Positions 1-64,000 of a DNA stretch of 64,000 nt are shown here, in pieces (position 1 is the first letter of the stretch; each line of letters opens with the position of its first letter). This DNA is from Escherichia phage KarlGJung. A program made the translations under genes and the position numbers. Location of the stretch: the sequence record MZ501089. The stretch is one strand, 5' to 3'. The notes beneath the pieces were generated by a model. It saw nothing but the letters and a program-made list of their open reading frames with translations. It was not told the DNA's origin and searched no databases.

Positions 1-349
1 CACCGCATTCAAGGTCTCGCATCATCACCCGACGCAAAACTTCAACATCATCTTTTTTACCGTCAGTAATATATCCAGTTAATTCCTCAATTGCCGCATT
101 TCCAGTCAATTTCCGAGTAGCTAACGTGAATTCAATGAAGTCGAGCATATCTGTAAGAGTCAACATTCCAAAACTCTGGGTAGCAATACCAGGTTTAGGC
201 CATTTCTTGATATAATACTGTAACCCACGAGAATAAGTCAGACGATATACTCGTTTAAGCAATTCATTATCTTTATTCTTTTCAAGAATTGCTTGCTTCT
301 GCTTAGTTGAACCAATAGATGCTATTTCGTTCAGAATTTTAAGAATCAT
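1..349 (-). CDS. 30: DNA ligase, N-terminal part (gene runs off the window start)
   Basis: Minus-strand ORF starting at ATG 347-349 and continuing past position 1; my translation begins MILKILNEIASIGSTKQKQAILEKNKDNELLKRVY..., which matches the T4 DNA ligase N-terminus as I recall it. Not in the ORF track because truncated. Confidence 0.8.
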   Translation of the reverse strand, partial: MILKILNEIASIGSTKQKQAILEKNKDNELLKRVYRLTYSRGLQYYIKKWPKPGIATQSFGMLTLTDMLDFIEFTLATRKLTGNAAIEELTGYITDGKKDDVEVLRRVMMRDLECG

Positions 350-615
350 TGTTCATCCTTTAGAGTTTGGTTTACAGCTCTATTATAAATCAATTCATCA
401 TTAAGCTCAGTCAAAGACCTGTGGTACGTGGTTCTAACTTTATTTCCTTGCATCCAGTGCTTGACGTAAATGAAACCTTGCTCTACACATTTTTTAAAAA
501 TTCGTTCGTCTTTTTGAGCTCGGAATTCTGGATTGCATCTAAAAAATTGATTTACGTGACCGTAATCACGTGTAGTATTACCTTCATTTTCATAAATAGT
601 GTGAACGACAAACAT
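346..615 (-). CDS. hypothetical protein (89 aa)
   Basis: ORF track; ATG start; stop overlaps the ligase start. Sits where the T4 30.x small genes lie. Confidence 0.45.
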   Translation of the reverse strand: MFVVHTIYENEGNTTRDYGHVNQFFRCNPEFRAQKDERIFKKCVEQGFIYVKHWMQGNKVRTTYHRSLTELNDELIYNRAVNQTLKDEQ

Positions 616-1451
616 TAGAATGCTCCTTGGAAAATATTATCACCACTAGTAGGTCTATTATACAAATACTCTATGCCACCAGGTTTAATATAGTTCCATG
701 TCTGAAACGGATGTGTCTGATATGGATGATATGGATTATAAGGATTAAATCCAGGAGTTCTCCAGGTAGTGTTCCAACGAAAAGAATCATTTTTAATCAT
801 CTTTTCAATTACATCTTTTATAGCTTTTTCACTATCAAAACTTTCTTTATTTTCCTTTGGTGAAAAAAGCTTATTCTCTACATCGTTCCATGTATAAACT
901 CGCTGAGCGGTTTTTGGAATACTGTCACGTTCCCCTCGAGCCATCCAATACACAGGAACACGTAATATTTCACTCGCATGATCGCAGTGGTGAGCGAGAT
1001 CGTCAATATAACAAATTACGTTATATTTCTCTTTTGCCTTTTTGAACAACTCTTCTTTTGAAGAATCATGACCACACATCATTACTTCTGAGAAGGCACC
1101 AGGAAAAAGAGCATTCAAATTAAATTGACGATTCAGCAGAGCGTCAATAGAATCACCCAATGCTGTAACAGCTACAAAATTATAATCTTCTTTTAATTTG
1201 TTAATTACACACAGGGCATCTTTATATGGAGACAAGTAACGAATAAAATCTGAACGATTGTATTTTTCAATTAGCTTAACGCCAAGCTCTTCATCGCAAT
1301 TAAATAGTTTACCTGGAGAGATAAATTTCTCATCTTGGATCATTTTTAAAATATGTTCCAACGGAAGATTATATTTCTGAGCAAAATAAGGAAGACCTGA
1401 TTGCCAGCTTAAACATACTCCATCAATATCAGTTAAAATAGTAGGCTTCAT
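615..1451 (-). CDS. HAD-like hydrolase-fold protein (278 aa)
   Basis: ORF track; N-terminal DIDGV motif typical of HAD phosphatases; ATGA overlap with the upstream gene. Confidence 0.5.
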   Translation of the reverse strand: MKPTILTDIDGVCLSWQSGLPYFAQKYNLPLEHILKMIQDEKFISPGKLFNCDEELGVKLIEKYNRSDFIRYLSPYKDALCVINKLKEDYNFVAVTALGDSIDALLNRQFNLNALFPGAFSEVMMCGHDSSKEELFKKAKEKYNVICYIDDLAHHCDHASEILRVPVYWMARGERDSIPKTAQRVYTWNDVENKLFSPKENKESFDSEKAIKDVIEKMIKNDSFRWNTTWRTPGFNPYNPYHPYQTHPFQTWNYIKPGGIEYLYNRPTSGDNIFQGAF

Positions 1452-1906
1452 AGAGAGTCTCTTAATAGGTTTAACACATCAATAAATTCAGCTTCGGTTA
1501 GTATTGTATCATCTTTTGTTAGACCACTAGCCATGCTGTGCTTCAAAACTTTTCCTTTCGAGGCTTGTAATGCATCACGAAAGCCCTTGTTTTGGATCGC
1601 TGCTTCAAAATATGCATTTGTGTATAATTCTTTCCACGCCGGGGAGTATCTTGAAAACGGAACTCCAAGCCAGAAGAGGGTCCCACGGTCCTGAGCTCTA
1701 GCATAAGACCTTCCAGCTTGTTGGGCGGCAAGCCCGGATAACCCAAATATACGACGTTGTTGTTCAACATTTTTCACCTTACACCCTTGGAGGAATCCTT
1801 CAAGACCTCCAAATTGAATACCATCCATAACGAAAGGCCATTGGGCGAAATTACTTAATGCACATGATGGCCACCTAAAATTACTTCTAATCTCTAACTC
1901 AGACAT
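1448..1906 (-). CDS. NADAR (YbiA-like) domain protein
   Basis: ORF track frame, start trimmed to first ATG (track start is TTG). N-terminal segment LSNFAQWPFVMDGIQF resembles the FSNFAAWPIKVDGKTW signature of E. coli YbiA as I recall it. Confidence 0.5.
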   Translation of the reverse strand: MSELEIRSNFRWPSCALSNFAQWPFVMDGIQFGGLEGFLQGCKVKNVEQQRRIFGLSGLAAQQAGRSYARAQDRGTLFWLGVPFSRYSPAWKELYTNAYFEAAIQNKGFRDALQASKGKVLKHSMASGLTKDDTILTEAEFIDVLNLLRDSL

Positions 1907-2105
1907 TTTCAATGCTTATAATTTCAACATCAGCCCAATGACCATAGCAAGGAAGACGAAATTCAACTGGCCAGTTAGGGTCCTTTTCTAATATAATAGA
2001 CTTAACTTGTGGTTCTTCGTGTTCATCAGTATACGGATTTTTATCTGTTACTTTATATGTGACCTTAATGTACTGAATTCCAAAAATCTTATTAATTATA
2101 TTCAT
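1899..2105 (-). CDS. hypothetical protein (68 aa)
   Basis: ORF track; ATG start; tightly packed in a minus-strand operon. Confidence 0.4.
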   Translation of the reverse strand: MNIINKIFGIQYIKVTYKVTDKNPYTDEHEEPQVKSIILEKDPNWPVEFRLPCYGHWADVEIISIENV

Positions 2106-2299
2106 ACTAATTCCTTTAATCCGTAGATAGGAGATAATTCATCACCCATACGAAGGTCTTCATTTCCATCTACCCAGGAAACAATATAAGCCTCTTTTAT
2201 TTGAATACCACTCCATTTAAATGGAGGTAGAACCTTAGAAATTAATCCAGGTATACCAACTCCCTTTAATTCAACGGTTTGACCTAAAAAGAATTTCAT
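2102..2299 (-). CDS. hypothetical protein (65 aa)
   Basis: ORF track; ATG start; ATGA overlap with the upstream gene. Confidence 0.4.
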   Translation of the reverse strand: MKFFLGQTVELKGVGIPGLISKVLPPFKWSGIQIKEAYIVSWVDGNEDLRMGDELSPIYGLKELV

Positions 2300-2586
2300 T
2301 AAAACCTCATCTGAAAACCATGCGATTTAACGTTACCACCGCCAATATCAGAAATATTAATTTCACGCGCAATTGAAGGGTCAATGTCAATTTCACGATT
2401 GAGTTTAGTGATAGCTAAAGTATCGCGCCCATTTACAGTACGGAACTCTAAAGGACAAACCACATCAACGTAGTTTTTAATCGATTCACTAGTAGGCTGC
2501 AAATGAGCAGGAAGGTCTTTAGGCGCCTTTGAGAAAACCACTTCACAGAAATTTTTGCGGGTATCAAAATAAGTAGTCATAAACAT
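2299..2586 (-). CDS. hypothetical protein (95 aa)
   Basis: ORF track; ATG start preceded by GAGG and an upstream UUCG hairpin. Confidence 0.45.
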   Translation of the reverse strand: MFMTTYFDTRKNFCEVVFSKAPKDLPAHLQPTSESIKNYVDVVCPLEFRTVNGRDTLAITKLNREIDIDPSIAREINISDIGGGNVKSHGFQMRF

Positions 2587-2605
2587 AATATTTTCCTCAG
2601 TAAGG

Positions 2606-2622
2606 GGCCGAAGCCCCTCATT
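2606..2622 (-). other. intercistronic UUCG-tetraloop hairpin just 5' of a ribosome-binding site
   Basis: Minus-sense GAGGGGC-UUCG-GCCCCUU, then GAGG Shine-Dalgarno and ATG at 2586. Confidence 0.5.
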
Positions 2623-2628
2623 TTATTT

Positions 2629-2994
2629 TTAAATATCAAATTCGTTAAGAACTACATCAAAGATTGCTTCCAAGTGCTCAGGTTTAGCTTTGTTACTCAG
2701 AATATGACGAATCCAAGTTTTAACTAAGAGTTTACGATTAGCACCATTCCAGCAAGGATGAGTCCCTAAATCGCGTTGGCGGAAATCATCATCCAGAGCG
2801 ATTTTGAAGTTGGAACCTTTCATCGTGATTGAAACCGTGATACCGTTTTCAAATCGCATATAAACGTAGTTAGGAGTCATATACTGTTCAATTTCGCATA
2901 CTGATCCGTTTTGATGTTTCCAGAGGCAAATAGTATCAATAGAACCTGCAATACCATTAGAAACATATTTACGTTCAAAGTTGATGTAGTTCAT
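2629..2994 (-). CDS. hypothetical protein (about 121 aa)
   Basis: ORF track frame; trimmed to ATG (MNYINF...) with GGAG Shine-Dalgarno; track start is TTG. Confidence 0.45.
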   Translation of the reverse strand: MNYINFERKYVSNGIAGSIDTICLWKHQNGSVCEIEQYMTPNYVYMRFENGITVSITMKGSNFKIALDDDFRQRDLGTHPCWNGANRKLLVKTWIRHILSNKAKPEHLEAIFDVVLNEFDI

Positions 2995-3061
2995 TTTATT
3001 CTCCAAGATGTTTAATTGCGGTACAGGTATATAATATCATATCCTGTACCAAAGTAAACAA

Positions 3062-3394
3062 TTATTTTACTACTTTCCAATGCTGCATGTCAAGTTTACC
3101 AACTTTTTTCATCTTCTCAATTAAGCGTTCTGCACGTTGGCGAGCTGTAACATAATGCCATTCGCCTAATTCATTTTGTTCAATTTTTCCAACGATTACT
3201 GTATTCAATTCATAAATCCAACCAGTAAAGAAATTATGAACTTGAATTGTAAAGGTGAAATCTGTTCCCATACCTTCTGTTGTTTCTACTTCAATAATAT
3301 CACCTTCAACTGCCATTAAGAACCACATAGTTTCATTATATTTACCATTGAAGCATTTAGTTTTAACTGCAGCGTTCAGATTAATCGTTTTCAT
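3062..3394 (-). CDS. hypothetical protein (110 aa)
   Basis: ORF track; ATG start with AAGGAG Shine-Dalgarno; early-type promoter directly upstream. Confidence 0.5.
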   Translation of the reverse strand: MKTINLNAAVKTKCFNGKYNETMWFLMAVEGDIIEVETTEGMGTDFTFTIQVHNFFTGWIYELNTVIVGKIEQNELGEWHYVTARQRAERLIEKMKKVGKLDMQHWKVVK

Positions 3395-3970: not shown

Positions 3971-4219
3971 TTACTTCAATGTTACCACAAAGTGACGAAC
4001 TGCTTTTCGTGCAGCAGAAGCCAGAGGCTTAGCATACTTAAGTTCATCTTTTTCCTGAAGCTCAGCAGCTAATGCAGTTTGAGCAGGATTCAGATGTTTG
4101 AAATAACGCAGGATTTCAAGAGCTTCGGCTTCAACATCAATAGATGCGCCATAGTTTTCGTGACCATTATTCCATGCGTTTCGTTGCAGTTCAAGAGCGT
4201 GTTGTAATTGTTTAATCAT
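3971..4219 (-). CDS. rIII: rIII lysis-inhibition accessory protein (82 aa)
   Basis: 82-aa ORF immediately upstream of gene 31, matching T4 rIII size and position; ATG start. Confidence 0.6.
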   Translation of the reverse strand: MIKQLQHALELQRNAWNNGHENYGASIDVEAEALEILRYFKHLNPAQTALAAELQEKDELKYAKPLASAARKAVRHFVVTLK

Positions 4220-4345
4220 TTAAAAATTCTCGTTAGAGATTAAAACTCGGTAGTCACGTTCTTCTGAATTTCATCTTCTTTCGACAGATCTCTCAGTTGT
4301 AGACTACCACATAGAATTGAAACTCAATTCATATTATTATTTATA

Positions 4346-4681
4346 TCACTTATAAAGACACGGAATAGCTTTATAGTGACAAGTAACGAATTTTTGTTTA
4401 ATTTCTTTTGGCTGCTTAAGACCCAGAGCTACAAAAGGATGCGGAACATTTCGAATTTGACCAACTGGAAGAGAAGTCAAATCGCCAACTTCGCAGAAAC
4501 CTTCAGGAACATCAGGACCAACAGAGTGAACTACACACAGTTCAGGAACTTCACCTTGAACACGTTTACCGATAATAAGTCCTGATTCTGTAACTTCTTC
4601 ATCACCGGCTTGTGCAGGTTCAGAAACTAAAATAACATATTCACCGACAGCACGAATTGGTAGCTGTTGTACTTCAGACAT
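4346..4681 (-). CDS. 31: gp31 co-chaperonin (GroES-like)
   Basis: 111-aa ORF starting [30 protein letters not shown]..., matching T4 gp31 in length and sequence as I recall it. Confidence 0.88.
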
Positions 4682-5046: not shown

Positions 5047-5283
5047 TTATTTACCTATTACAGTTTTAATATGAGTTGTTCCACGTTCTTTAAGGGTGGA
5101 AAGTAATTTTTGGCATTTTTCTAAATCAGATTTCCAACTATATGGTCTATCAATACTAGTCCAATCAGTTTTATAATACTGTTTCCATTTAGAGAAAAAA
5201 TATTTCTTATACTCTACAGCAAATGAGATGTTCTCGTTAGAATAAGAACTAATTGCTGTGAGCTTTACCAAACGAAATTTCAT
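5047..5283 (-). CDS. hypothetical protein (78 aa)
   Basis: ORF track; ATG start. Confidence 0.4.
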   Translation of the reverse strand: MKFRLVKLTAISSYSNENISFAVEYKKYFFSKWKQYYKTDWTSIDRPYSWKSDLEKCQKLLSTLKERGTTHIKTVIGK

Positions 5284-5864
5284 TATTCACCACAGAATTC
5301 GTTGATATTTTCCCAGTTTAACTTATTCAAGTTTTTCTTGGGAACATTAAACACTTCAATACCTGCATTTCGCAGAATATCATCCCAGCCAGGTTTATTT
5401 TTATCATATGTTTCGCAATAAACCAGCTTTTTAATACCAGATTGAGCTATCGCTTTTGCGCAATCTGGACAAGGAGAAAGTGTTACATACATAGTAGCAC
5501 CTTCAATAGAAGAACCATTTCGTGCAGCAAACAAAATTGCATTTAGTTCAGCATGAATTTCATTTTTAGACGACCATTCAGAGTGAGCGCTACGGTGTTC
5601 TTTCGCCAAGACAAAGCGATCAGTTGAACCAAATGATACGCATTCAGGCTTATGGCCTTGGATGATAGTATGTTTAGGTTTATTCAGCAACCAACCTTGC
5701 TCAGCGGCATAATCACAACAGTTCACACCTCCTGCGGGTGAACCGTTATACCCAGTAGAAATAATACGTCCATTCTTTTCAATTACTGCTCCTACCTTCC
5801 AGGAGCAACATTTTGATTCTTGTGATACTAAATATGCAATTTGAAGTACTGTACTCGCTTTCAT
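5283..5864 (-). CDS. cd: dCMP deaminase
   Basis: 193-aa ORF with the zinc-binding deaminase signature HAELNAI ... SPCPDCAKAI; matches T4 Cd length. Confidence 0.9.
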   Translation of the reverse strand: MKASTVLQIAYLVSQESKCCSWKVGAVIEKNGRIISTGYNGSPAGGVNCCDYAAEQGWLLNKPKHTIIQGHKPECVSFGSTDRFVLAKEHRSAHSEWSSKNEIHAELNAILFAARNGSSIEGATMYVTLSPCPDCAKAIAQSGIKKLVYCETYDKNKPGWDDILRNAGIEVFNVPKKNLNKLNWENINEFCGE

Positions 5865-6774: not shown

Positions 6775-6975
6775 TTACCTCACATAATTTTCTTCAAGCC
6801 AATCAATAACATCCAAAGCGTTATCAAAAGTTGAACCATCTACTTTGTCTTCTGTTTCATAATCAAGAACATCTAAGCCTACTCTTCCGTCAACAATAGG
6901 CCATAAACAAAATAGATATTTCTTTTCTTTTTCAATTTTATCACAAAGACGATAAATCTTTTCTATGTTATTCAT
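6775..6975 (-). CDS. hypothetical protein (66 aa)
   Basis: ORF track; ATG start. Confidence 0.4.
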   Translation of the reverse strand: MNNIEKIYRLCDKIEKEKKYLFCLWPIVDGRVGLDVLDYETEDKVDGSTFDNALDVIDWLEENYVR

Positions 6976-7164
6976 AAGTTTTCCATGGTAAAGGCAGTTT
7001 AGTTTTCTTTACTGTTAGTTCAACATCAGGATTCTTTTCTCTCAATTTAAGACATTCCTCCCAAGCTCTGATTTCACTAGTGAATACACAAAATTGCCCA
7101 TTACTAGTACCGACTAAACCACTATTTACAATAATAATAGCCCAAGTTTCATGATGCCACGCCA

Positions 7165-7165
<1 letters not shown>
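6968..7165 (-). CDS. hypothetical protein (65 aa)
   Basis: ORF track; ATG start. Confidence 0.4.
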
Positions 7166-8377
<1,212 letters not shown>

Positions 8378-8381
<4 letters not shown>

Positions 8382-8608
8382 TTATTTTTCTCAACTAATG
8401 ATTGAATATAATCATGCAGATCTTTAGATGCCTTACCCCACTTATTTTGATATTCATTTTTAAGATTAGCACGTGATTGAGCTAATAAAACATCATTAGT
8501 TGGAGGTAAAGATTCTAACCGCTGAATTTGGCGTCCATAAATCATTGCAGCCATCTCGGATTCATAAATCAATCCTTTGAGATGTTCAAATTGATGCCAT
8601 GAAATCAT
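8378..8608 (-). CDS. hypothetical protein (76 aa)
   Basis: ORF track; ATG start. Confidence 0.4.
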
Positions 8609-8904
8609 TTACATTTATCCTCTTTTAACTCTTGACGATAATAACATATCATAGTTTTCTGGTCATGTACATATCGTTTTACATCATTAAGCCAAATACG
8701 AAATTCCTGAGAATCTTCAAATGGCATACCTACCCAAGCTTTACCATCAATAACTTTAACTTGCCAAGATAGTTTAGCTTCGTCATATGACTTTATTTGC
8801 ACAGGCCAATTAGGATGAACTGTTTCTTTCTTTACTTCTAGAGGCTTTGTCGAACAACCAACTAGAAGACCAATAGATAATATTACTGCTGATAGTTTAA
8901 TCAT
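8605..8904 (-). CDS. outer-membrane lipoprotein, candidate o-spanin
   Basis: Signal peptide ending in the lipobox LLVGC|S; 99 aa; immediately downstream of the candidate i-spanin; position matches T4 pseT.2. Confidence 0.5.
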   Translation of the reverse strand: MIKLSAVILSIGLLVGCSTKPLEVKKETVHPNWPVQIKSYDEAKLSWQVKVIDGKAWVGMPFEDSQEFRIWLNDVKRYVHDQKTMICYYRQELKEDKCK

Positions 8905-9254
8905 TTAGAAAGGTCCTGGATGTCTTCTGCGAACTTGTTGAAGGAGTTGTTGATTTGTTTTTCAACCAATCCTGGCTTATGAGCCACCACATCCGCCTTC
9001 TTTGCGTCTTTGCGCAGTTTTTCATTTTCACGCTCAATAGCAGCAATTGCCTCACGATTTTTATTATTCATCGCATCAATATAATTATACTGAATTCGCA
9101 AATTATTTAATGCTAAGGCGTTTTCATTGGCCGTTTTTGTAATTTCAGTAACCGATGTTTCTAATCTTTCTACCTTATTTTTTAAAATAATAGATGTTCC
9201 ACCAAATACTATTACAAGTAATAGCAAACCTGCTGTCGTATTACTTAATTGCAT
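8901..9254 (-). CDS. candidate i-spanin (N-terminal TM helix plus coiled coil)
   Basis: N-terminal hydrophobic helix (AGLLLLVIVFGGTSIIL) followed by a charged, helical-looking region; position matches T4 pseT.3. Confidence 0.5.
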   Translation of the reverse strand: MQLSNTTAGLLLLVIVFGGTSIILKNKVERLETSVTEITKTANENALALNNLRIQYNYIDAMNNKNREAIAAIERENEKLRKDAKKADVVAHKPGLVEKQINNSFNKFAEDIQDLSK

Positions 9255-9812: not shown

Positions 9813-11400
<1,588 letters not shown>

Positions 11401-53676: not shown

Positions 53677-53677
53677 A

Positions 53678-54424: not shown

Positions 54425-54457
54425 ATTTTTCTCACATCTTACGGACGGTTAACTACT

Positions 54458-54491
54458 TATACTATAACATTTTTACCTTAACTTGTAAACA
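54458..54491 (-). promoter_or_regulatory. early promoter upstream of the srd-like gene
   Basis: Minus-sense (T)GTTTAC, 18 nt, TATAGT. Confidence 0.55.
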
Positions 54492-54502
54492 ACTTTATGA
54501 AA

Positions 54503-54529
54503 AATGCTTTAAAACTTTCATGGTATAAT
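54503..54529 (+). promoter_or_regulatory. candidate MotA-type middle promoter on the plus strand (antisense to modA)
   Basis: Plus-strand AAATGCTTTA (MotA-box-like), 12-nt spacer, TATAAT; would transcribe into the modA/modB antisense strand. Confidence 0.3.
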
Positions 54530-54546
54530 GAATCTAAGTCCTTCCA

Positions 54547-55149
54547 TTATAGATTAAATCCTTCAAAATCAAGAGTATAGATAGTGTATGTTGAATACTT
54601 TTTATACTCGTATCTATCCGCAATTCTAAATACACTTCCAGCTGGTATCATTACTTCTTGTTCATCTGAAACTAATTCCATATTACGATAGCGATGGCTA
54701 TCCGGAAACTTAAAACTCGGACTATATTCTTTACAACGTAGAGCTTTTATAGCATACTCCTGGAAATTGAATACCATAGGAGCTTTGAATTCAAAAATAA
54801 CTTGTGTGTTATACTCTAAACCGGAAGCAAAATGTAGAGCTATATTTTTATCATATGAAGCTGATACGACTTTATCAAATGTAATAATATCAATTCCTTG
54901 ATTTAATACTTGCTTAGTCTCAGCTGGAACACCTCTCCAAAGAGGTTTATCGTTTGGTTCCAAACGAGATTTGATTATTTCATTTAACCAAGTATGGTCA
55001 TCTGGTTTATTAGTAATACAATGAATTAAAAGTTCAATTTCAGATAAATTAAACCCTTCAGAAAGTAATTCTTCACGAATAGAAGCACGCACCGATGCAT
55101 CCATTGATTTGATTTTAAAATCTTTTAATTGCATTGCTGAATATTTCAT
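54547..55149 (-). CDS. modA: ADP-ribosyltransferase ModA
   Basis: 200 aa; ART-like elements (LWRGVP arginine, ...EQEVMIPAG glutamate); adjacent paralog ModB. Confidence 0.8.
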   Translation of the reverse strand: MKYSAMQLKDFKIKSMDASVRASIREELLSEGFNLSEIELLIHCITNKPDDHTWLNEIIKSRLEPNDKPLWRGVPAETKQVLNQGIDIITFDKVVSASYDKNIALHFASGLEYNTQVIFEFKAPMVFNFQEYAIKALRCKEYSPSFKFPDSHRYRNMELVSDEQEVMIPAGSVFRIADRYEYKKYSTYTIYTLDFEGFNL

Positions 55150-55769
55150 TCAACTACCTCAATATCATACACTTTAAATGTTCCAAATGAATCGTGTAAT
55201 TTTTCTTTTGAAATAGAAGTTATTCTATACTTTCCAATTGGAATCATCCATTCTTGTTCACGCACAATCATCATTAAGTTATCAGTACGCTCTGAATCTA
55301 ATCCATCAGTATCTTCATATGTATACTTAAATTCAGTATTAGGAGAAGAAAGTATAATATCGCTGATATGGTCAGAATAATTAAAAGCTTTATCAGTTTT
55401 TAAGCGAAATATTATTTCAGTGAAATACTCAACATAAGAAAAACCACATGCTGTGTGCAAACTAGTAGTAAATGAATCTACTCTGTTCGTTGAAAACACT
55501 TCTCCGACTTGTAAATCTTTAATGAGTTCTTTTGTCGATTTTGATATACCACGATATAGCTGATAAGGCGATTTAGTTAAATGCTTTTTAACGATTTTAT
55601 TCAACTGCCGATGAAGAGCTTCATTCTTTTTGGCTTCCATACACTGCCAAAGAACTGACTGTTCAAAGTCAGTAAATTTTTCACAGACCTTTTTGTACAT
55701 ATCATATTGAAAATCAACACTTTCAGCTTTTATAGATAACTGTTCAACATCTGCGAGATTAATAATCAT
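55146..55769 (-). CDS. modB: ADP-ribosyltransferase ModB
   Basis: 207 aa from the ATG with GGAGG Shine-Dalgarno (MIINLADVEQ...); ART-like elements (LYRGIS, ...EQEWMIPIG). Confidence 0.8.
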   Translation of the reverse strand: MIINLADVEQLSIKAESVDFQYDMYKKVCEKFTDFEQSVLWQCMEAKKNEALHRQLNKIVKKHLTKSPYQLYRGISKSTKELIKDLQVGEVFSTNRVDSFTTSLHTACGFSYVEYFTEIIFRLKTDKAFNYSDHISDIILSSPNTEFKYTYEDTDGLDSERTDNLMMIVREQEWMIPIGKYRITSISKEKLHDSFGTFKVYDIEVVE

Positions 55770-55791
55770 GATAGCCTCCATATACTTCAGA

Positions 55792-55826
55792 AGCTATCAT
55801 ATCATTGTTAGGAAGGAAAGTAAACA
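55792..55826 (-). promoter_or_regulatory. early promoter upstream of modB
   Basis: Minus-sense (T)GTTTAC, 17 nt, weak -10 (ATATGAT). Confidence 0.4.
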
Positions 55827-55836
55827 ACTTTTTGAA

Positions 55837-56019
55837 TTATTTTGCCCAGGGAGCCCAAGGCGGAGGGTCAAGATGGTATGAAGCTAGTTCTTCTAGAAGA
55901 GCATCTGGGGCTTCAATTCCATAATTCTGTAATACTATACGGTACTCTTTCTTATAATCACTAGAATCATTCTGGATATTCGTAGAATGATTATCTTCTA
56001 ACATCTCAAATAAATCCAT
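55837..56019 (-). CDS. hypothetical protein (60 aa)
   Basis: ORF track. Confidence 0.4.
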   Translation of the reverse strand: MDLFEMLEDNHSTNIQNDSSDYKKEYRIVLQNYGIEAPDALLEELASYHLDPPPWAPWAK

Positions 56020-56027
56020 ATTAATTC

Positions 56028-56510
56028 CTAGCGATAAAAACCAAAATAACGATTAGCTTCAATAATCTTTCTTTCTTCTTCAGATATTCTCCAGCGTAGT
56101 CCAACATCAAAATGAGCCCAGACCATCTTAACAAATGCATTTATATCTTTAATATCTTCAATAATGAATGTTTTACTTTTAGAAGGTTGACCTGCTAAAT
56201 TAAGTGCTAATTTAACTTTATCGTCTTCAAACAGGGCAAAAAGACCATATTCATGAGCTCTTTTATAGCCTTTAATAGTTAAAGCTTCAGAAGAAGAAAA
56301 CGGTGAATCAGTATTCTGTAAAATATCTTCAGTATGCTTTATAATTAGAATAACATTTTCTGGATATTTTCTTTCTTTTATATCTTTAATTAAAAGATCC
56401 GGATTTTCTGCTAAAGGAATAATTAATGAGCATTTTTTATCAAGTGCATTTACTGATTTACCTTCTTTAGACATAAATTCTATTGAATAATGTTTTGCTA
56501 CTTCAATCAT
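56028..56510 (-). CDS. hypothetical protein (160 aa)
   Basis: ORF track; ATG start overlapping the upstream small ORF stop. Confidence 0.45.
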
Positions 56511-56667
56511 GTGATTTCCTTTTGCCTACTAATGGGCCGTCAGGAATTTTGTTTTCCTGGATATATTTCTCATTTTCTTCCATCATTTTACTGCCAATTT
56601 TAAGAAGCAAATCCAGTGCTTCATTTGCTTTAGCCTTGGCCTCTTCTAGCGTCATATCTCTGTTCAT
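56503..56667 (-). CDS. small hypothetical protein (about 54 aa)
   Basis: Hand-translated [42 protein letters not shown]...; ATGA overlaps at both ends; not in the ORF track. Confidence 0.3.
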
Positions 56668-56867
56668 GATTTATCCCCATAGATATCTCTCATCAATTTA
56701 AGCGCTGAGCGTTCTAATTTCTTTTCTTTCTCAGCACTAATCATTGATTTCATCCATTCTTCTGATTCGTTCTGCATTTCTTTATTTGCTTGTTCAACCC
56801 AACCATCATCAATATACATCGAGTTTGGTCTATTGAACCATTCAAGCATCTTCTTCAGAGCTTTCAT
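56664..56867 (-). CDS. hypothetical protein (67 aa)
   Basis: ORF track. Confidence 0.4.
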
Positions 56868-57339
56868 TTGTTTTACCTAAAACAACAGTAGGAGCATCAT
56901 CAAATTCATGAATTTTGAGCAAATTTGGATGTAAACTATTCCATACAGAAGAAATAAAGTATGATAAAGCATCTTCACTCGCAATTATAAATTTATTTCC
57001 TTTATCTATTTTCCAACTATATACTGAATCGTACGAATAAAAAGATAAAGGTTTATCATTATATTGTTCTGCGCTAACATTAATGTATTCTGATTTAGTA
57101 AATGCTTCAATTGCTCTAAACGGAATATTTGGTACAGTTTCAATAATACCAATCTTTTTAAGTTTTATTTCAGCATCTTCTGGAACTGGCATTGAAACGA
57201 AATTTTCTACGAGATACATTGGGTCACAATAACCCTTATCAATCATTACTGCTACAGTAATTGGAACATCTTTAGCAAATGACAAACTATTACTGCTAAT
57301 ATACATTTCAAACAAAATCGCTTCCATAATTTTCCTCAA
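56842..57339 (-). CDS. hypothetical protein (165 aa)
   Basis: ORF track; start uncertain. Confidence 0.4.
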
Positions 57340-57677
57340 TCACAAGATGTAGATGAACAACTAGAATCACAAGAACTTCCACATGAATCGCCCGTCCACA
57401 CATGAACAGGAACATTAGTATCATATGAATCAGAACTAGACTGTGTATTCTGCGTATTAGATGATGTAGTAGGTGTTGACCAGCGCCAAGGATTTTTATA
57501 ATATTCTTGGGCTTCTTCATAAGTCATAGTAACTGCTTCTACTGTTCCATCTCCCATATAAACATACTCAACTACAGTTAAAGGAAGGTAGTCATTTGAA
57601 ATAGGAACTACACCTTCTCCGGGAGTTGTAGAGAAAAAATCTGTAAAGAAACTTTTAAACCAATTAAAGATAAACAT
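57336..57677 (-). CDS. hypothetical protein with cysteine-rich C-terminus (113 aa)
   Basis: ORF track; ends ...[18 protein letters not shown], preceded by a Ser/Thr-rich stretch. Confidence 0.45.
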
Positions 57678-57883
57678 TACAAAAAGCCTTTCTTGAATTC
57701 GACTTGCTTCTCACCATAATCATATCGAATTTCTGCATTAAATTCGACAGAACCATCTGCGTACATCATAAATGAATGCACAACAACTTCTGTAGACCAT
57801 GGTTGTAGTTCATATTTCTTCATTACGTGTCGTGAAATGATAATATCTAAATCTTCATTCGGTTTAATCCAACGATTTAACAT
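57677..57883 (-). CDS. hypothetical protein (68 aa)
   Basis: ORF track; ATG start with GAGGAGAG Shine-Dalgarno; early promoter upstream. Confidence 0.45.
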   Translation of the reverse strand: MLNRWIKPNEDLDIIISRHVMKKYELQPWSTEVVVHSFMMYADGSVEFNAEIRYDYGEKQVEFKKGFL

Positions 57884-57981: not shown

Positions 57982-58227
57982 TTAACCACCAGTTACTTTC
58001 CACAAATCTTCGTTTGCAGCAATCCATTCAGTACGCTGATTTTCTTCATATACAGTAGTATATGCTGCTTTTTCTGAAGGGAACGTCTGGTAATGAGCAC
58101 CAGAAATTTTGTGAACGTCAGAATAAAGAGGGAAAGCTACTGAAATTTCCTTTCCTTCAATTTTCTTATTTCCATCTAATTTCTGCTCAAATGTTTTGAT
58201 ATTAACATAACCGCGAGTACTAGCCAT
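57982..58227 (-). CDS. soc: Soc small outer capsid protein
   Basis: 81-codon ORF MASTRGYVNIKTFEQKLDGNKKIEGKEISVAF...; late promoter upstream and terminator downstream. Confidence 0.9.
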   Translation of the reverse strand: MASTRGYVNIKTFEQKLDGNKKIEGKEISVAFPLYSDVHKISGAHYQTFPSEKAAYTTVYEENQRTEWIAANEDLWKVTGG

Positions 58228-58257: not shown

Positions 58258-58265
58258 TATTTATA
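58258..58265 (-). promoter_or_regulatory. late promoter (TATAAATA) for soc
   Basis: Exact minus-sense TATAAATA about 30 nt upstream of the soc ATG. Confidence 0.6.
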
Positions 58266-58295: not shown

Positions 58296-58814
58296 TTAAT
58301 AACCTCGGTCTTGACGAACGAAATTTTCAGCATTTTTCAGATAATAAAGTTTAAAGATTTCTTCTGCTGTAAGACCAAGACCTTGAAACATGTTCAGAAC
58401 AAAATGGAGAATATCAATCATTTCGAATTTGATTTCTAACTGGTCCTGTGGAGACAAATCAGTAATCAGAGTTTCACGACGTTCACCATGCTGAGCTTTC
58501 CACGGCTTCCATACAGCAGATGCATCTTTTTCGCCATTGCTCATACCACCAAGAGAAGTCAGAAGTTCGCGGAATTCATCATCAATATAATCTTTCTGAT
58601 TACGCAGCCAATCAACAACTTCACCTGCAGTAGCCAAATCATCAGGATGACGGTTATATTCAGGTTTATCTTTAGCTAAACGAATCTGCAGAGATTTCTG
58701 CATGTCAAGCATTACCTGCAGCGGGTCTTTTTCATCACCGAGAATATCCCAATATTCATTTTGAGCTTTATCAGCGCCTTCGATCAGTTGACTACATTCG
58801 TTAAAGTAAGCCAT
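58296..58814 (-). CDS. 56: gp56 dCTPase/dUTPase (MazG-like)
   Basis: About 172 aa from the ATG (MAYFNECSQLIEGADKAQNEYWD...); track start is TTG, 5 codons upstream. Confidence 0.85.
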   Translation of the reverse strand: MAYFNECSQLIEGADKAQNEYWDILGDEKDPLQVMLDMQKSLQIRLAKDKPEYNRHPDDLATAGEVVDWLRNQKDYIDDEFRELLTSLGGMSNGEKDASAVWKPWKAQHGERRETLITDLSPQDQLEIKFEMIDILHFVLNMFQGLGLTAEEIFKLYYLKNAENFVRQDRGY

Positions 58815-58874: not shown

Positions 58875-59663
<789 letters not shown>

Positions 59664-59667
59664 TCAT

Positions 59668-59862
59668 TTATTGCAGCAAAAAAAATGAATTATACAATTC
59701 ATCATCATATGTATTTGATAGTAATACTAACACGTTTTGCGATTTAGCATATTCATTAAACCTCGCCTGAATAGTTGGATTATCAGTAAATGATTCTCTT
59801 TTTGTCCATTTATTACGTGGATAATATCCGCATGGTAAAAAATCTAATATCATCCTCAGCAA
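59668..59862 (-). CDS. hypothetical protein (64 aa, uncertain start)
   Basis: ORF track; first codon is TTG, and the internal ATG has almost no spacing to its GAGG; may be leaderless or not real. Confidence 0.3.
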   Translation of the reverse strand: MLRMILDFLPCGYYPRNKWTKRESFTDNPTIQARFNEYAKSQNVLVLLSNTYDDELYNSFFLLQ

Positions 59863-59867
59863 TTTAT

Positions 59868-59901
59868 TTTATAATACCATAACAAGCTGAAAAAGTAAAC
59901 A
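59868..59901 (-). promoter_or_regulatory. early promoter
   Basis: Minus-sense GTTTAC, 18 nt, TATTAT. Confidence 0.5.
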
Positions 59902-59944
59902 AATTTATGAAATTTGTGATAAATATTAATTTAAAGGAGGACAT

Positions 59945-60145
59945 ATGGTACAAAAATTAATGGCACTTGTTAATGCCATAAAAGGTAATAAAAAACGTAT
60001 AGCTTTTACTATTTCTGCTATGGTAGGAATTTTACTCTGGAATTTTGTTTTATCGCCAATTGCTATTGCTCACGGCGTTAATATTCCAGTAATTACTCTT
60101 GATACATTCGTAGATTTAGCATTTGCTTTGGTTGGGTTAATTTAA
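59945..60145 (+). CDS. small membrane protein (66 aa), opposite strand to its neighbours
   Basis: ORF track; ATG start with strong AAGGAGG Shine-Dalgarno; two predicted hydrophobic helices; 3' end overlaps the gene 61 stop. Confidence 0.5.
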   Translation: MVQKLMALVNAIKGNKKRIAFTISAMVGILLWNFVLSPIAIAHGVNIPVITLDTFVDLAFALVGLI

Positions 60146-61170
60146 ATCTTGGCATATTTAGATAGCCTCATTTTAGCCATCAACCCTTGGGCAATATTAT
60201 TTTTCATATATTCCATAATTTGTTCAGGGGTTGCACCTTCCTTTCTAATCATATCATTAACATCTTTTGATTTCCAGGGAGATTTATCCCAAAACATAAC
60301 CCTTTCTCCTGCATCAACTAATTTAGTCATTCGCTTAATTGTATCAGGGTGACGAGGTTCATTATCTAAGACCCACACTCGTCTATCTTTAAATGGAACA
60401 ATTTCTAGGTCTAATTGACCACCCGTAATAGCTATACCATTTTCAATAAAAAGTGAATCTATAGGTCCTTCTAGAACATATACATCGCCATCTTTAACTC
60501 GTTCGACTCCATAGATTTTTGTTGCCTCAGGATAAGCTTTGATGGTGATATATTTTTGAGGAGCATCTTTCTTTAATGCACGTCCTTGAAAAGACTCAGC
60601 TTTTCCATTAGCATTATAAATTGGAATAACAAGACGAGGCTCAGAAATTTCCTTTTTGTATGTTCCCGGTGCTATGCTATTAACTAATTTAGGCCATTCG
60701 GTTGTAAACCAAAGATATTTCCATTTATCCTTTGGAATACAACGAGCTTTTACATATTTTATAATTGGATGGTCTTCCGCCAGTTTATCTAATCTAACGC
60801 ATGACGGAAGAGATTTAATTATTTTCTTCTCAGGTTGTTTAGGAAGTTCTTTAGGTTTTTCTACTGGACGACTTTTACCTTTTTCTTTTCTTATTTCAAA
60901 GATATACTCACGATATAAATCAGGTTCAAACTCCTTTAAATATATTCCGATTGGTGCATGATAGTTACAGTTATAACAATGAATATTTCCTTCATTATTA
61001 TCGCCATAATACCATCCACGAGCTTTATTCTGGTCGGTTTTTGAATCTCCACAAACAGGGCATCTAAACCGTAATTTAAAAGTTGAACTATTATTTACTT
61101 GTGTGAATTTAGGTAAATGAGCTAATGCACGGTATGCAAACTCATTATCAATCCAAGGTATTGATGACAT
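60142..61170 (-). CDS. 61: gp61 DNA primase
   Basis: 342 aa; N-terminal zinc ribbon (CPVCGDSKTD ... CYNC) and TOPRIM-type core. Confidence 0.92.
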   Translation of the reverse strand: MSSIPWIDNEFAYRALAHLPKFTQVNNSSTFKLRFRCPVCGDSKTDQNKARGWYYGDNNEGNIHCYNCNYHAPIGIYLKEFEPDLYREYIFEIRKEKGKSRPVEKPKELPKQPEKKIIKSLPSCVRLDKLAEDHPIIKYVKARCIPKDKWKYLWFTTEWPKLVNSIAPGTYKKEISEPRLVIPIYNANGKAESFQGRALKKDAPQKYITIKAYPEATKIYGVERVKDGDVYVLEGPIDSLFIENGIAITGGQLDLEIVPFKDRRVWVLDNEPRHPDTIKRMTKLVDAGERVMFWDKSPWKSKDVNDMIRKEGATPEQIMEYMKNNIAQGLMAKMRLSKYAKI

Positions 61171-61172
61171 TT

Positions 61173-61337
61173 TTACTCTTCTTTTTCTTTAGATTCCTCT
61201 TTTTTCTTTTTAGGAATCTGTTCAGGACCTTTATTTACTACAGCGCCTGATGTTGTTCCAGTAGAGATATTTTCAGGATTACCACCTGAATCTCCAGCGA
61301 CCATATCTTCTTTGATAAATTCTTTATATGTTTTCAT
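61173..61337 (-). CDS. small hypothetical protein (about 54 aa)
   Basis: Hand-translated MKTYKEFIKEDMVAGDSGGNPENISTGTTSGAVVNKGPEQIPKKKKEESKEKEE; directly upstream of gene 61; not in the ORF track. Confidence 0.35.
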   Translation of the reverse strand: MKTYKEFIKEDMVAGDSGGNPENISTGTTSGAVVNKGPEQIPKKKKEESKEKEE

Positions 61338-61338
61338 A

Positions 61339-61695
61339 TTAACCTCTATTCATAAAAGCATTAAAAATTTGGTCATCAATAGATGGTGCAGTAATATTTT
61401 CTGCATCATTTAGCAAATCATTAATTTCATCAGATAGCATAACACATGTACCTTTATTTCCTGTAATTGTTACTGCGCAATTACGAACGTTTTCTTTATT
61501 AAATTTTAGGTTAATATTTTCGTAATGAAAATCCTTTAATGCCGAATATATCTTTAAAATGAAATTGTCTTTTACTACAATAAACCCAACCTCACTATTA
61601 AAACGTGGTTCATGGAAACTGTAATAAACCTTTTCATCTATAAAATCGTATGAAATTTTTTCCATTTTTAAATATGAAAATTCAGAACTATACAT
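61339..61695 (-). CDS. hypothetical protein (118 aa)
   Basis: ORF track; ATG start. Confidence 0.45.
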   Translation of the reverse strand: MYSSEFSYLKMEKISYDFIDEKVYYSFHEPRFNSEVGFIVVKDNFILKIYSALKDFHYENINLKFNKENVRNCAVTITGNKGTCVMLSDEINDLLNDAENITAPSIDDQIFNAFMNRG

Positions 61696-61707: not shown

Positions 61708-62001
61708 TTACTCACCTACCACTTCAGCGATGATATTTTTGTTATTAAAGTTTTTATCGCAATACAGAACATAATTATACTGCATTACACCACCAGACTT
61801 AAGCTGTTTTTGCACTTCGGCTTTCATTTCAGGACGATCGCGCTCAACGATATTCATAATATCTGCTTCAATTTGAGTTTCAACCTCAGTCTGATCCGCA
61901 GTCATAGACCATTCGCACAAATCTTTATCATAGCCTGCCATAGCAGGCTGAGCAGCACAAGAAGATAAAGCAAAAATTGTAGCAAAGATAAATTTTTTCA
62001 T
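61708..62001 (-). CDS. sp: secreted periplasmic protein, Spackle-like
   Basis: 97 aa with a signal peptide (MKKFIFATIFALSSCAAQPAMA); third ORF downstream of gene 41, where T4 sp (61.3) lies. Confidence 0.55.
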   Translation of the reverse strand: MKKFIFATIFALSSCAAQPAMAGYDKDLCEWSMTADQTEVETQIEADIMNIVERDRPEMKAEVQKQLKSGGVMQYNYVLYCDKNFNNKNIIAEVVGE

Positions 62002-62023
62002 GATAATCTCCTCAGTAGTTTAT

Positions 62024-62058
62024 GTTTATAGTATCTCAATTTCCAACAAAAGTAAACA
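62024..62058 (-). promoter_or_regulatory. early promoter upstream of the sp-like gene
   Basis: Minus-sense GTTTAC, 18 nt, TACTAT. Confidence 0.5.
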
Positions 62059-62059
62059 G

Positions 62060-62317
62060 TTATTTTAAAACTTCTGCATAATCACATGTTACAAACTGTT
62101 TCTCTAGCTTAACGATCTTACGAAAATACCTTTTACACTGACGAATCTGCCGCTTCGTAGGACGTACAGCAAACTTAATAAATTCCACTCGACCAGATGG
62201 AGGACTTTCTTCTGGTGGAATATCTAATACCAATTCCCACGTATCTGCAATAAGTGCTTTGAATTGTGTATTTTTCCTGACGTTATACGGAGTAGGTTTA
62301 AATAAAACAATATGCAT
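62060..62317 (-). CDS. hypothetical protein (85 aa)
   Basis: ORF track; ATG start. Confidence 0.45.
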   Translation of the reverse strand: MHIVLFKPTPYNVRKNTQFKALIADTWELVLDIPPEESPPSGRVEFIKFAVRPTKRQIRQCKRYFRKIVKLEKQFVTCDYAEVLK

Positions 62318-62318
62318 A

Positions 62319-62501
62319 TTATCCTCGGCAATCTACTTCACACACTTTCTTGTCATCAATGAAAGCTTTAACTAATGCTTTATTAACTTCAGCATACTGA
62401 GTAGTAGCCCATTGAACGTCATCTTTCATCATTGTGGTTTCTTTAGTAAACATGCTTTCATTCTTAAACCACCCCATAAAAACTACCTTTAGCAATTCCA
62501 T
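62319..62501 (-). CDS. dmd: Dmd-like antitoxin (60 aa)
   Basis: 60-aa ORF immediately downstream of gene 41, the position and size of T4 dmd (61.5); early promoter upstream. Confidence 0.5.
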   Translation of the reverse strand: MELLKVVFMGWFKNESMFTKETTMMKDDVQWATTQYAEVNKALVKAFIDDKKVCEVDCRG

Positions 62502-62529
62502 AACAATCTCCTCATTTAACCAACAAGAC

Positions 62530-62561
62530 TACTATACCATAGTCTTGTCAGCTTGTAAACT
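62530..62561 (-). promoter_or_regulatory. early promoter upstream of the dmd-like gene
   Basis: Minus-sense GTTTAC, 18 nt, TATAGT; -35 overlaps the gene 41 stop. Confidence 0.45.
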
Positions 62562-63987
62562 AAAATTTTAATTCATTTGCCAAAGCATCTAACTGAGCTC
62601 GAGTCGATTCGTTTCTTTGATAGCGATTCTGCTCAGCTTGTATCTGTTGTGAACCTGCTACCTCACTCACTTCAGTTGGAGTAGAATCTTGTTCAATTTC
62701 TACCCATTTCTGATTTCCTTTTTGAACACCCATCAAAAACTTATTCCATTTGTTCTTATCGCCATATCGTGATTTGATTTGCTTAATGAGTTGTTGTTCA
62801 GCAGCTGCTAGCTCCTCGGTTTCAATGACCGCAAGCATAAAATCAGCTGTTGCTGGAAGACCGGCAGATTCTGCAATATCGCTCATGTTAACATCAGAAG
62901 AATCCCAAGCTTGTTTACCAACCTGTGCTGCAGTCCAAAGAACAGTTTCGGTTTCAACAGCAAGAGCACGTAATTCCTCTGCAATGGCTTTAACAGTTGT
63001 GTAACTATTTTCTGAGTAAACTCTAATGCGGCAAGATTTACAAATACCCAGATAGTCGACAATAATGATTGTTGGAACAAAATTCTTCTTGAGCTTTAAT
63101 TCGTTTAAAAGCGATCGAAATGTATTAGCATCTGCTCCACCAGTAGGATACTGTTTAACTATTAAACGACCGAGAGTAGATTTCTCGCGCCATTTTTCCA
63201 TTTTTCCTTTATACTCAGCGTAAGAAATATGCCCGTCATCAATGTCATCAAGAGAAACATCAAGCATATTAGCATCAATACGCTTAGCACAGACTTCTTC
63301 TGCCATTTCCATGGAAATGTAAAGAACATTATGTCCGAGCTGCAAATAATCTGCTGCCAATGAACACAGACCTAATGACTTACCGACGTTAACACCAGCC
63401 ATTAAAACGTTCAGTGTTCCAGTTTCAGCTCCACCTTTAGTAATTTTATTTAGAATTTTGAGTCTAAATGGAACCTTACGAGCTTTATTCATATAAGATA
63501 GCCAACGTGCTTCGTAGTCATCCATCCAATCATGACCAACGTAACTATCAAATGAAATTGATAATGCTTGGCGCATGATGTCAGGAATAGCACCTACATC
63601 TGGCATTTTCTTATTTCGTTTTTCCGGAGGAAGCTCAGCATTAGTTTGAATTTCAATTATTTTAGACGTAGCATTAAACATCGCCCTTTGCTGAACATAT
63701 TTTTCTGTTTCTTTTACTAACCAGCTATGGTCTTCTGGAGAATCGGCTAGTTTCGAAATAAGTGTTTTTACACCAGAATATTCTGTTTCAGTAAATGAAC
63801 TATTTTCTAATGCAACATTTAACGCATTAATAGATGGAACGCTATGGTACTCATTAACATGAGATTTAATTAATTTGAACGTATTTTTAGCTGGACCACT
63901 TTCAAAATATTCTGAATCCATATATGGCCAAACTTTTGAAAAATAAGCTTGATCAAATATGAGATGAGAAAGAATAATTTCTACCAC
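62560..63987 (-). CDS. 41: gp41 replicative DNA helicase (DnaB-like)
   Basis: 475 aa, MVEIILSHLIFDQAYFSKVWPYMD...; Walker A MAGVNVGKSLGL; start codon appears to be GTG preceded by AAGGAG. Confidence 0.93.
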   Translation of the reverse strand: MVEIILSHLIFDQAYFSKVWPYMDSEYFESGPAKNTFKLIKSHVNEYHSVPSINALNVALENSSFTETEYSGVKTLISKLADSPEDHSWLVKETEKYVQQRAMFNATSKIIEIQTNAELPPEKRNKKMPDVGAIPDIMRQALSISFDSYVGHDWMDDYEARWLSYMNKARKVPFRLKILNKITKGGAETGTLNVLMAGVNVGKSLGLCSLAADYLQLGHNVLYISMEMAEEVCAKRIDANMLDVSLDDIDDGHISYAEYKGKMEKWREKSTLGRLIVKQYPTGGADANTFRSLLNELKLKKNFVPTIIIVDYLGICKSCRIRVYSENSYTTVKAIAEELRALAVETETVLWTAAQVGKQAWDSSDVNMSDIAESAGLPATADFMLAVIETEELAAAEQQLIKQIKSRYGDKNKWNKFLMGVQKGNQKWVEIEQDSTPTEVSEVAGSQQIQAEQNRYQRNESTRAQLDALANELKF

Positions 63988-64000
63988 ACTTACTCCTTAA

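Follow-up and report, generated by a model that had tools for sequence, protein, structure and literature searches.

The gene 30 to gene 41 segment of Escherichia phage KarlGJung as a T6-like mosaic of T-even phage modules

To which T-even phage does a long piece of phage genome belong when its closest classical relative changes repeatedly along its length? The piece considered here, hereafter the window, is a stretch of 64,000 nucleotides (nt) of Escherichia phage KarlGJung (sequence record MZ501089) that runs from gene 30 (DNA ligase) to gene 41 (replicative helicase); a first-pass annotation, made from the letters of the sequence, had described it as a T-even core segment, "T2/T6-like rather than T4". 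The reading that we prefer, with a probability of about 0.97, is that the window is a contiguous 64-kilobase (kb) genome piece of a lytic Escherichia/Yersinia-infecting Tequatrovirus (T4 family), and a natural recombinational mosaic of modules of T6, T2, T4 and other isolates.

Membership in the T-even phages follows from both DNA and protein comparisons. Queried as three thirds by megablast against 50,697 GenBank phage records, the window matched 1106, 1021 and 830 records, respectively; the top records for each third show 95-100% coverage and 95.7-97.8% identity, are Tequatrovirus without exception, and include T6 (among the top matches for the first 25 kb of the window), Yersinia phage PST, a48, HP3.1, ES19/21, OE5505 and PYps5T. 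Chance is excluded for matches of such size (E = 0, versus the shuffled expectation). The 113 unspliced T4 coding sequences (CDS) annotated from gene 30 to gene 41 were translated and compared with the window by tblastn; 108 have a match, in strictly monotonic order, on the expected strands and mostly at 95-100% amino acid (aa) identity. One of these, a 37-aa mobA remnant, is a cross-hit to an HNH gene, so that 107 matches are genuine; the five CDS without a tblastn match in the window are I-TevIII, segG, segF, 60.1 and the T4-type gp38. The assignment to a T-even segment from gene 30 to gene 41 is thereby confirmed, and the earlier count of at least 45 open reading frames (ORFs) matching T4 proteins proves to be an underestimate. 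Two observations had been named in advance as contrary to this assignment, best matches outside the Tevenvirinae and a non-collinear gene order; the matches are all Tequatrovirus, and the order is collinear with T4, T6 and T2. The window, with a GC content of 35.4%, crosses the rIIB/rIIA junction, which is the conventional T4 coordinate origin, and corresponds to the T4 map from about 127 kb through this origin to about 22 kb. No tRNA genes were found in the window with ARAGORN, as expected, since the T4 tRNA cluster sits elsewhere in the T4 genome. The hydroxymethylcytosine-pathway genes of the interval (56, the dCTPase gene, with cd, alc, denA, denB and arn) are all present by tblastn.

The mosaic structure appeared when the window was compared by blastn with the equivalent T4, T6 and T2 intervals, with the best reference scored in 1-kb bins. 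All three intervals are collinear with the window; coverage of the window and identity in the aligned parts amount to 95.9% and 95.5% for T6, 88.5% and 95.3% for T4, and 86.5% and 94.8% for T2, and from bin to bin the closest of the three changes repeatedly. T6-type parts are the entire tail-fibre region (24-34 kb), the td-frd accessory ORFs and a 213-aa HNH gene; T4-type parts are cd.4/cd.5 (about 6.8-7.2 kb) and motB.1/motB.2 (about 49.6-50.6 kb); T2-type parts are the 39.2-goF-cef block (47-49 kb), dam (58.9-59.7 kb) and a 118-aa ORF at the 61.2 position. In the same comparison, T6 leaves window positions 6819-7131 (cd.4/cd.5) and 58855-59933 uncovered, and the motB.1/motB.2 stretch is covered by neither T6 nor T2. 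Only ten reference loci suffice to provide an identical nucleotide, in at least one of them, for 98.9% of window positions. The product of identity and coverage within the window is about 84% for T4 (95.3% x 88.5%) and about 92% for T6; both values exceed the ~70% threshold of the genus Tequatrovirus, with gene content and order collinear with T4, and both lie below the species line of at least 95% over genome length for Tequatrovirus T6 and Tequatrovirus T4, a comparison that refers to the window only. Judged by its sequence, the accurate label is a T6-like mosaic Tequatrovirus, neither T6, T2 nor T4 itself. The original "T2/T6-like rather than T4" is thus supported in a refined form: the T6 part is retained, with T6 providing the best coverage, whereas the T2 part does not apply to the tail fibre, which is unlike that of T2, nor to td, whose intron, left unmentioned in the first-pass annotation, is absent from T2.

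Frequent changes of the best reference, every few kb, could also be produced by an assembly artefact, a chimeric contig of several co-infecting or co-occurring T-even phages, and short segments with 100% matches in different phages (36900-37400 in ACG-C40 and others, 7950-8450 in R5505, gp38 in fPS-65) would suit this explanation. However, the same kind of mosaicism is found between the complete references T2, T4 and T6, the ORFs across the junctions are all intact and collinear, and most of the window is identical to no record, which is not to be expected if known phages had been joined into a chimera; an artefact of this kind is very improbable.

Still less can be said for phage T6 itself or a laboratory T6 variant, an identification that has a negligible probability. 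T6 (NC_054907.1 / AP018814.1 / MH550421.1) is the best of the three classical references, is among the top matches for the first 25 kb, and has in common with the window the unsplit gene 39, an intronless nrdB, the td intron with I-TevI, the 213-aa HNH gene between nrdA and nrdB, the td/frd accessory ORFs and the gp36/gp37/gp38 tip type. Yet the aligned parts are only 95.5% identical; the T6 record lacks dam, cd.4/cd.5, motB.1/.2, the 75-aa ORF between motA and gene 52 (37032..37259) and the T2-type 118-aa ORF at the 61.2 position, whereas a 175-aa ORF after cd.2 in T6 is missing from the window; and the shared genes include td exon 2 at 73% nt, gene 56 at about 74% nt, gp37 at 90% aa and gp38 at 92-93% aa identity. 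The 95.5% identity and these module differences refute T6 itself at the strain level. A T2-type phage, finally, has next to no probability: T2 (AP018813.1) shares the unsplit gene 39 (99.7%), the intronless 392-aa nrdB, dam, the 118-aa ORF and the 39.2-goF-cef block, the last three being closest to T2, but this identification is unsupported given the lowest coverage of the three references (86.5%), a very different tail fibre (gp37 22% and gp38 51-53% aa identity), and two elements of the window that T2 lacks, the td intron and the HNH gene in the nrdA-nrdB interval.

T4 (NC_000866) shares with the window the td intron with I-TevI, the cd.4/cd.5 and motB.1/.2 modules and the late-promoter positions; in contrast to the window, it has the nrdB intron with I-TevIII, segG, segF, mobA/60.1 and the gene 60 bypass cassette. 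In place of the 183-aa gp38 chaperone of T4 the window has a 260-aa adhesin, its gp37 is unrelated to T4 gp37 past the first ~64 residues, and it carries several T6/T2-type accessory ORFs on top of the T4 set. A side observation concerns the reference records: T6 NC_054907 and T2 AP018813 contain many product names that are clearly mistaken transfers (for example, nrdA is called a "single stranded DNA-binding protein", and gene 41 and cd are called "major capsid protein"), and product names from these two records should not be trusted for annotation transfer.

Several points weigh against the preferred reading of the window as a natural Tequatrovirus mosaic. No record among the 50,697 exceeds about 97-98% identity over any third of the window; the structural genes, gene 42 and the glucosyltransferases lie beyond its 64 kb; an Rfam scan of the whole window at the gathering threshold returned zero hits, the td group I intron included; and, while identity, gene order and junctions are direct observations, we infer functions, regulation, promoters and receptor from homology with T4. 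The td intron was missed by Rfam probably because the 738-nt I-TevI ORF interrupts it; with Rfam silent, the intron is supported by alignment, at 99.7-99.9% identity to the T4 and T6 introns. On balance, the window is a further mosaic member of a densely sampled genus with more than 1000 related records, and holds established T-even biology and nothing unusual. The expectation that most of it would be well-described biology is borne out by gene-for-gene counterparts in T4/T6; annotation can be transferred almost gene for gene from these phages, and the ORFs of the window should therefore not be treated as unknown.

By analogy with T4, the minus strand would carry early and middle genes that work as in T4: those for nucleotide metabolism (nrdA/B, td, frd, cd, 56), for replication and recombination (32, 59, rnh, 61, 41, dda, dexA and the topoisomerase genes 39/52), for host shut-off and transcription takeover (alc, ndd, denA, denB, modA/B, srd, asiA, motA), and for counter-defence (arn, dmd, pseT/rnlA, stp and 30.3/adfN). 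On the plus strand, predicted TATAAATA late promoters would precede the late operon 34-38 for the long tail fibre and the holin gene t, and the host would be recognized by gp38, an adhesin of the T6/fPS-65 type capping the gp37 trimer. Only five TATAAATA motifs occur in the window, each where T4 has late transcription (Table 1).

Three local departures from T4 had been pointed out by the first-pass annotation: a gene 39 fused into one ORF, a 260-aa glycine-rich gp38 adhesin, and an nrdB gene without intron. All three are real. They belong to the textbook polymorphisms of T2, T4 and T6 (presence of the nrdB intron, split or unsplit gene 39/60, chaperone- or adhesin-type gp38), which the T2, T4 and T6 reference records themselves display. 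The product of the unsplit gene 39 is 99.8% identical to T6 gp39 and 99.7% identical to T2 gp39 (blastp, aa); the ORF as listed begins one GTG codon earlier than the 605-aa reading. Residues 1-473 of T4 gp39 align with residues 2-474 of this GTG-started ORF, and residues 27-160 of T4 gp60 with its residues 473-606, end to end, so that the 605 aa span T4 gp39 plus gp60. The window has 64 nt of continuous coding sequence where T4 has 1.1 kb, consisting of the gp39 C-terminus, mobA, 60.1, the gp60 N-terminus and the 50-nt bypass; T4 60.1 has no match in the window by tblastn.

The second departure concerns nrdB, which is one continuous ORF; in a global alignment of the T4 nrdB locus with the window there is a single 598-nt gap, exactly the T4 intron. 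The exon-1 side of the empty intron site (about 11930) is unusually divergent, with 85-88% identity of positions 11900..12200 to the best panel member, and several small indels are found 90-140 nt upstream of the intron insertion site. This divergence could be linked to resistance against cleavage by the neighbouring mobE-like endonuclease, the 213-aa HNH/NUMOD3 protein. T4 MobE aligns with the N-terminal 127 residues of this protein at 60% identity, and T4 nrdB.1 with its C-terminal 83 residues at 99% (tblastn). To judge from this alignment, the separate T4 mobE and nrdB.1 appear to correspond to one gene that has been split or has had its N-terminal part replaced. The 213-aa form is present in T6 and a48; T2 is empty between nrdA and nrdB.

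The td gene retains its group I intron, a 1016-nt insertion relative to the intronless T2 td at gene position 549/550, which is the T4 intron site; the spliced product has 286 aa. T4 and T6 also carry the intron with I-TevI. The intron is 99.7% identical to that of T4, 99.9% to that of T6 and 99.8% to that of a48 (nt), in contrast to the flanking exons, which are 86-87% (exon 1) and 73-88% (exon 2) identical to T4/T6; differences between the td sequence and that of T4 begin no more than 3 nt from the 3' splice site, and exon 1 has a 96.6% nt match in another Tequatrovirus. At the level of sequence, the contrast between intron and exons is what a mobile intron leaves when it has spread recently into divergent host alleles; the biology is known, the example very clean. 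With the td intron, I-TevI and the 213-aa mobE-like HNH gene present, and the nrdB intron, segG, segF and the mobA/gene-60 cassette absent, the window illustrates cleanly how selfish elements come and go among T-even phages.

The third departure from T4 is found at the tail-fibre tip. Glycine makes up 24% of the gp38 protein (62 residues) and 34% of its C-terminal 146 residues, in part as runs of nine (G9) and five (G5); the protein is 100% identical at the aa level (99.9% nt) to that of Yersinia phage fPS-65, and 92-93% and 51-53% identical to those of T6 and T2. Solved adhesin structures are matched by phmmer, 9v85_A with E=5.5e-79 and 6f45_D, the gp38 of Salmonella phage S16, with E=1.2e-49 over residues 5-257. 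In such adhesins, an N-terminal gp37-docking domain with conserved tryptophans is followed by C-terminal polyglycine motifs that flank variable loops (PMC7917993); correspondingly, an alignment with T6, T2 and fPS-65 shows no change at W9, W22 and W37, and the C-terminal G9/G5 runs are conserved with variable segments between them. Size, position, S16 homology and domain layout all place this gp38 in the T2/T6/S16-type class. The gp37 of the window is 94.7% identical to that of fPS-65, 90.0% to that of T6 and 22% to that of T2 (aa), and carries a predicted maturation site found by motif search, DVYIR|SDSRLKI, one residue off the cleavage site proposed for the fPS phages, DVYIR|SD(G/S)RLKI in its shared form (PMC7917993). 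After cleavage of gp37 at this site, gp38 would dock and serve as the adhesin.

Phage fPS-65 (NC_055724.1) resembles the window at the tail-fibre tip; elsewhere in the window it is not among the best matches. Its gp37 differs from that of the window in the segment 30900-31900, the least-matched kilobase of the window, for which no phage record exceeds 93.8% nt identity; distal fibres are usually hypervariable in this part. Since the segment reaches at most 93.8% while the adjoining gp38 gene is 99.9% identical to fPS-65 at the nt level, a recombination breakpoint is indicated inside or just after gene 37. The tip also permits a prediction of the host receptor, with fPS-65 (identical gp38) and T6 (92-93% identity; receptor Tsx) as guides; from these likenesses the receptor can be predicted only loosely. 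The identical gp38 protein of fPS-65 has been tied to a dependence on lipopolysaccharide inner-core heptose in Yersinia pseudotuberculosis (PMC7917993). A bolder proposal, which we consider doubtful, is that the phage represents an undescribed Tequatrovirus species or lineage, with no record above about 97% over any third, that combines an fPS-65-identical gp38 with the gp37 segment 30900-31900 (at most 93.8%), and whose host range might bridge E. coli and Yersinia.

Small ORFs without a T4 counterpart had been regarded as the place to which novelty would be confined, an expectation that did not hold. Every non-T4 ORF tested (8070..8381, 17989..18336, 18937..19194, 19179..19538, 37032..37259, 40665..40928, 47421..47792, 48622..48903, 51782..52042, 59945..60145 and 61339..61695) falls in an existing PHROG family, most of them at full length with E values of 1e-30 to 1e-72. 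Four odd DNA segments that were queried separately, two of them with non-T4 ORFs, have 96.6-100% nt matches in other Tequatroviruses. The only DNA absent from T4, T6 and T2 together is 36973-37294 (322 bp, blastn); the surrounding 36900-37400 is at least 99% identical at its best place in 109 Tequatrovirus records, and 100% identical over the full 501 nt in 15 of the 15 listed. The region of the 103-aa ORF (7950-8450) is 100% identical at the nt level in phages R5505 and AdolfPortmann.

Table 1. Features of the window in order of position, with strand and closest relatives or other remarks.
Feature	Position	Strand	Remarks
gene 30 (DNA ligase), first 116 codons	2..349	-	cut by window edge; 100% to T4 gp30 1-116
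genes 30.1, 30.2	346..1451	-	98-99% aa to T4
gene 30.3, AdfN (anti-DarT NADAR factor)	1448..1906	-	full length, 152 aa; 99.3% aa to T4 gp30.3
genes 30.4-30.8	1899..3394	-	97-100% aa to T4
rIII	3971..4219	-	100% aa to T4
predicted late promoter TATAAATA	4338..4345	-	upstream of rIII
gene 31 (GroES-like co-chaperonin)	4346..4681	-	100% aa to T4
cd (dCMP deaminase)	5283..5864	-	99.5% aa to T4
cd.4, cd.5	6775..7195	-	T4-type, 97% and 93% aa to T4; not in T6/T2 records
pseT (polynucleotide kinase/phosphatase)	7165..8073	-	99.3% aa to T4
103-aa accessory ORF	8070..8381	-	not in T4; phrog_2364 E=2e-42
pseT.2, pseT.3 (spanins)	8605..9254	-	99% and 96% aa to T4
alc	9245..9751	-	98.2% aa to T4
rnlA (RNA ligase 1)	9813..10937	-	98.7% aa to T4
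denA (endonuclease II)	10990..11424	-	99.3% aa to T4
nrdB	11428..12606	-	intronless, one continuous 392-aa ORF
HNH/NUMOD3 homing endonuclease, 213 aa	12603..13244	-	phrog_655 E=5e-67; Pfam HNH + NUMOD3
nrdA	13244..15508	-	98.4% aa to T4
nrdA.1	15499..15747		82 aa from GTG start; 108 aa in T4
td (thymidylate synthase)	16067..17943	-	exon 1 17395..17943, intron 16379..17394, exon 2 16067..16378
I-TevI (GIY-YIG homing endonuclease)	16526..17263	-	in td intron; 100% aa to T4 over 245 aa
115-aa accessory ORF	17989..18336	-	between td and frd; phrog_1928; in T6 and T2, not T4
frd (dihydrofolate reductase)	18356..18937	-	97.9% aa to T4
85-aa and 119-aa (DUF7247) accessory ORFs	18937..19538	-	T6-type; phrog_3183, phrog_3566, PF23905
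gene 32 (single-stranded DNA-binding protein)	20734..21642	-	98.7% aa to T4; no segG downstream
predicted late promoter TATAAATA	21726..21733	-	upstream of gene 32
genes 59, 33, dsbA, rnh	21742..23903	-	99-100% aa to T4
predicted late promoter TATAAATA	23966..23973	+	42 nt upstream of gene 34
gene 34 (proximal long-tail-fibre subunit)	24008..27877	+	91.2% aa to T4; 95-98% nt to T6
gene 35	27886..29001	+	96% aa to T4
predicted late promoter TATAAATA	29033..29040	+	31 nt upstream of gene 36
gene 36	29064..29714	+	T6-type; 66.5% aa to T4, about 95% nt to T6
gene 37 (distal fibre subunit, 989 aa)	29723..32692	+	T6/fPS-65-type; C-terminal chaperone domain
gene 38 (polyglycine-rich receptor-binding adhesin)	32729..33511	+	260 aa; 36 nt downstream of gene 37
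t (holin)	33542..34198	+	98.2% aa to T4
asiA, asiA.1, arn, arn.1-arn.4	34199..36280	-	94-100% aa to T4
motA	36291..36926	-	98.1% aa to T4
75-aa accessory ORF	37032..37259	-	between motA and gene 52; phrog_10955 E=1e-48
motA.1, gene 52 (topoisomerase II medium subunit)	37395..38869	-	98% and 99.8% aa to T4
52.1, ac, stp, ndd, ndd.1-ndd.6	38877..40668	-	93-100% aa to T4
87-aa accessory ORF	40665..40928	-	T6-type; phrog_2390
denB, denB.1	41004..41842	-	98% aa to T4
rIIB, rIIA	41871..44998	-	98.7% and 98.2% aa to T4
gene 39 (topoisomerase II large subunit)	45267..47084	-	unsplit, 605 aa
39.1, 123-aa accessory ORF, 39.2, goF, cef	47155..48608	-	T2-type block
motB, motB.1, motB.2	48989..50568	-	81-90% aa to T4;.1/.2 T4-type
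dexA, dexA.1, dexA.2, 86-aa accessory ORF, dda	50632..53368	-	
dda.1, srd, modA, modB, modA.2-4, srh, mrh, mrh.1, mrh.2	53365..57883	-	78-99.6% aa to T4
soc	57982..58227	-	98.8% aa to T4; no segF
predicted late promoter TATAAATA	58258..58265	-	upstream of soc
gene 56 (dCTPase)	58296..58814	-	divergent allele; 74% aa to T4, about 74% nt to T6
dam	58875..59654	-	97.3% aa to T4; in T4 and T2, not in T6 record
64-aa ORF	59668..59862	-	phrog_8706 positions 122-179 of 186 only
gene 61 (primase), 61.1	60142..61337	-	99.1% and 96.3% aa to T4
118-aa ORF	61339..61695	-	T2-type, replaces T4 61.2 (adfA); phrog_4122 E=4e-72
sp, 61.4, dmd	61708..62501	-	96-98% aa to T4
gene 41 (replicative helicase)	62560..63987	-	complete; 99.4% aa over 475 aa to T4

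The 118-aa ORF that stands in the place of 61.2 (adfA) is related to the T4 protein in its C-terminal part. Its similarity to the Pfam family AdfA is weak and C-terminal (32.2 bits, positions 113-211), and its identity to T4 gp61.2 is 34% over 103 aa, aligning with T4 residues 109-208 only; the last 13 residues, SIDDQIFNAFMNRG, are identical in the ORF and in AdfA, and a Cys is aligned to the functional His of T4 near position 164. AdfA is a full-length protein of ~208 aa with a functional His, and the 118-aa ORF differs from it in both respects. Phage T2, with the same 118-aa form, is treated as lacking adfA, and gene 30.3, present at full length in the window, has been named adfN (PMC11257639). 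That the 118-aa protein nevertheless represents a minimal functional AdfA relative is conceivable, and rather unlikely.

Between soc and gene 61, the divergent gene 56 allele is 99.1% identical at the nt level to phages Pinarejo and Elenatom; in T4, gene 56, which is essential, adjoins segF, absent from the window. About 360 bp of T2 are missing between dam and gene 61 (59655..60141), and the 64-aa ORF located here is, by its partial match, what a deletion has left of a ~181-186-aa gene; T2 and OE5505 have this gene intact. In nrdA.1, only residues 30-108 of the T4 protein align, at 100%, and the N-terminal part, which in T4 overlaps nrdA.2, is missing or different. The arn.4 gene has the long 109-aa T6 form (phrog_1594).

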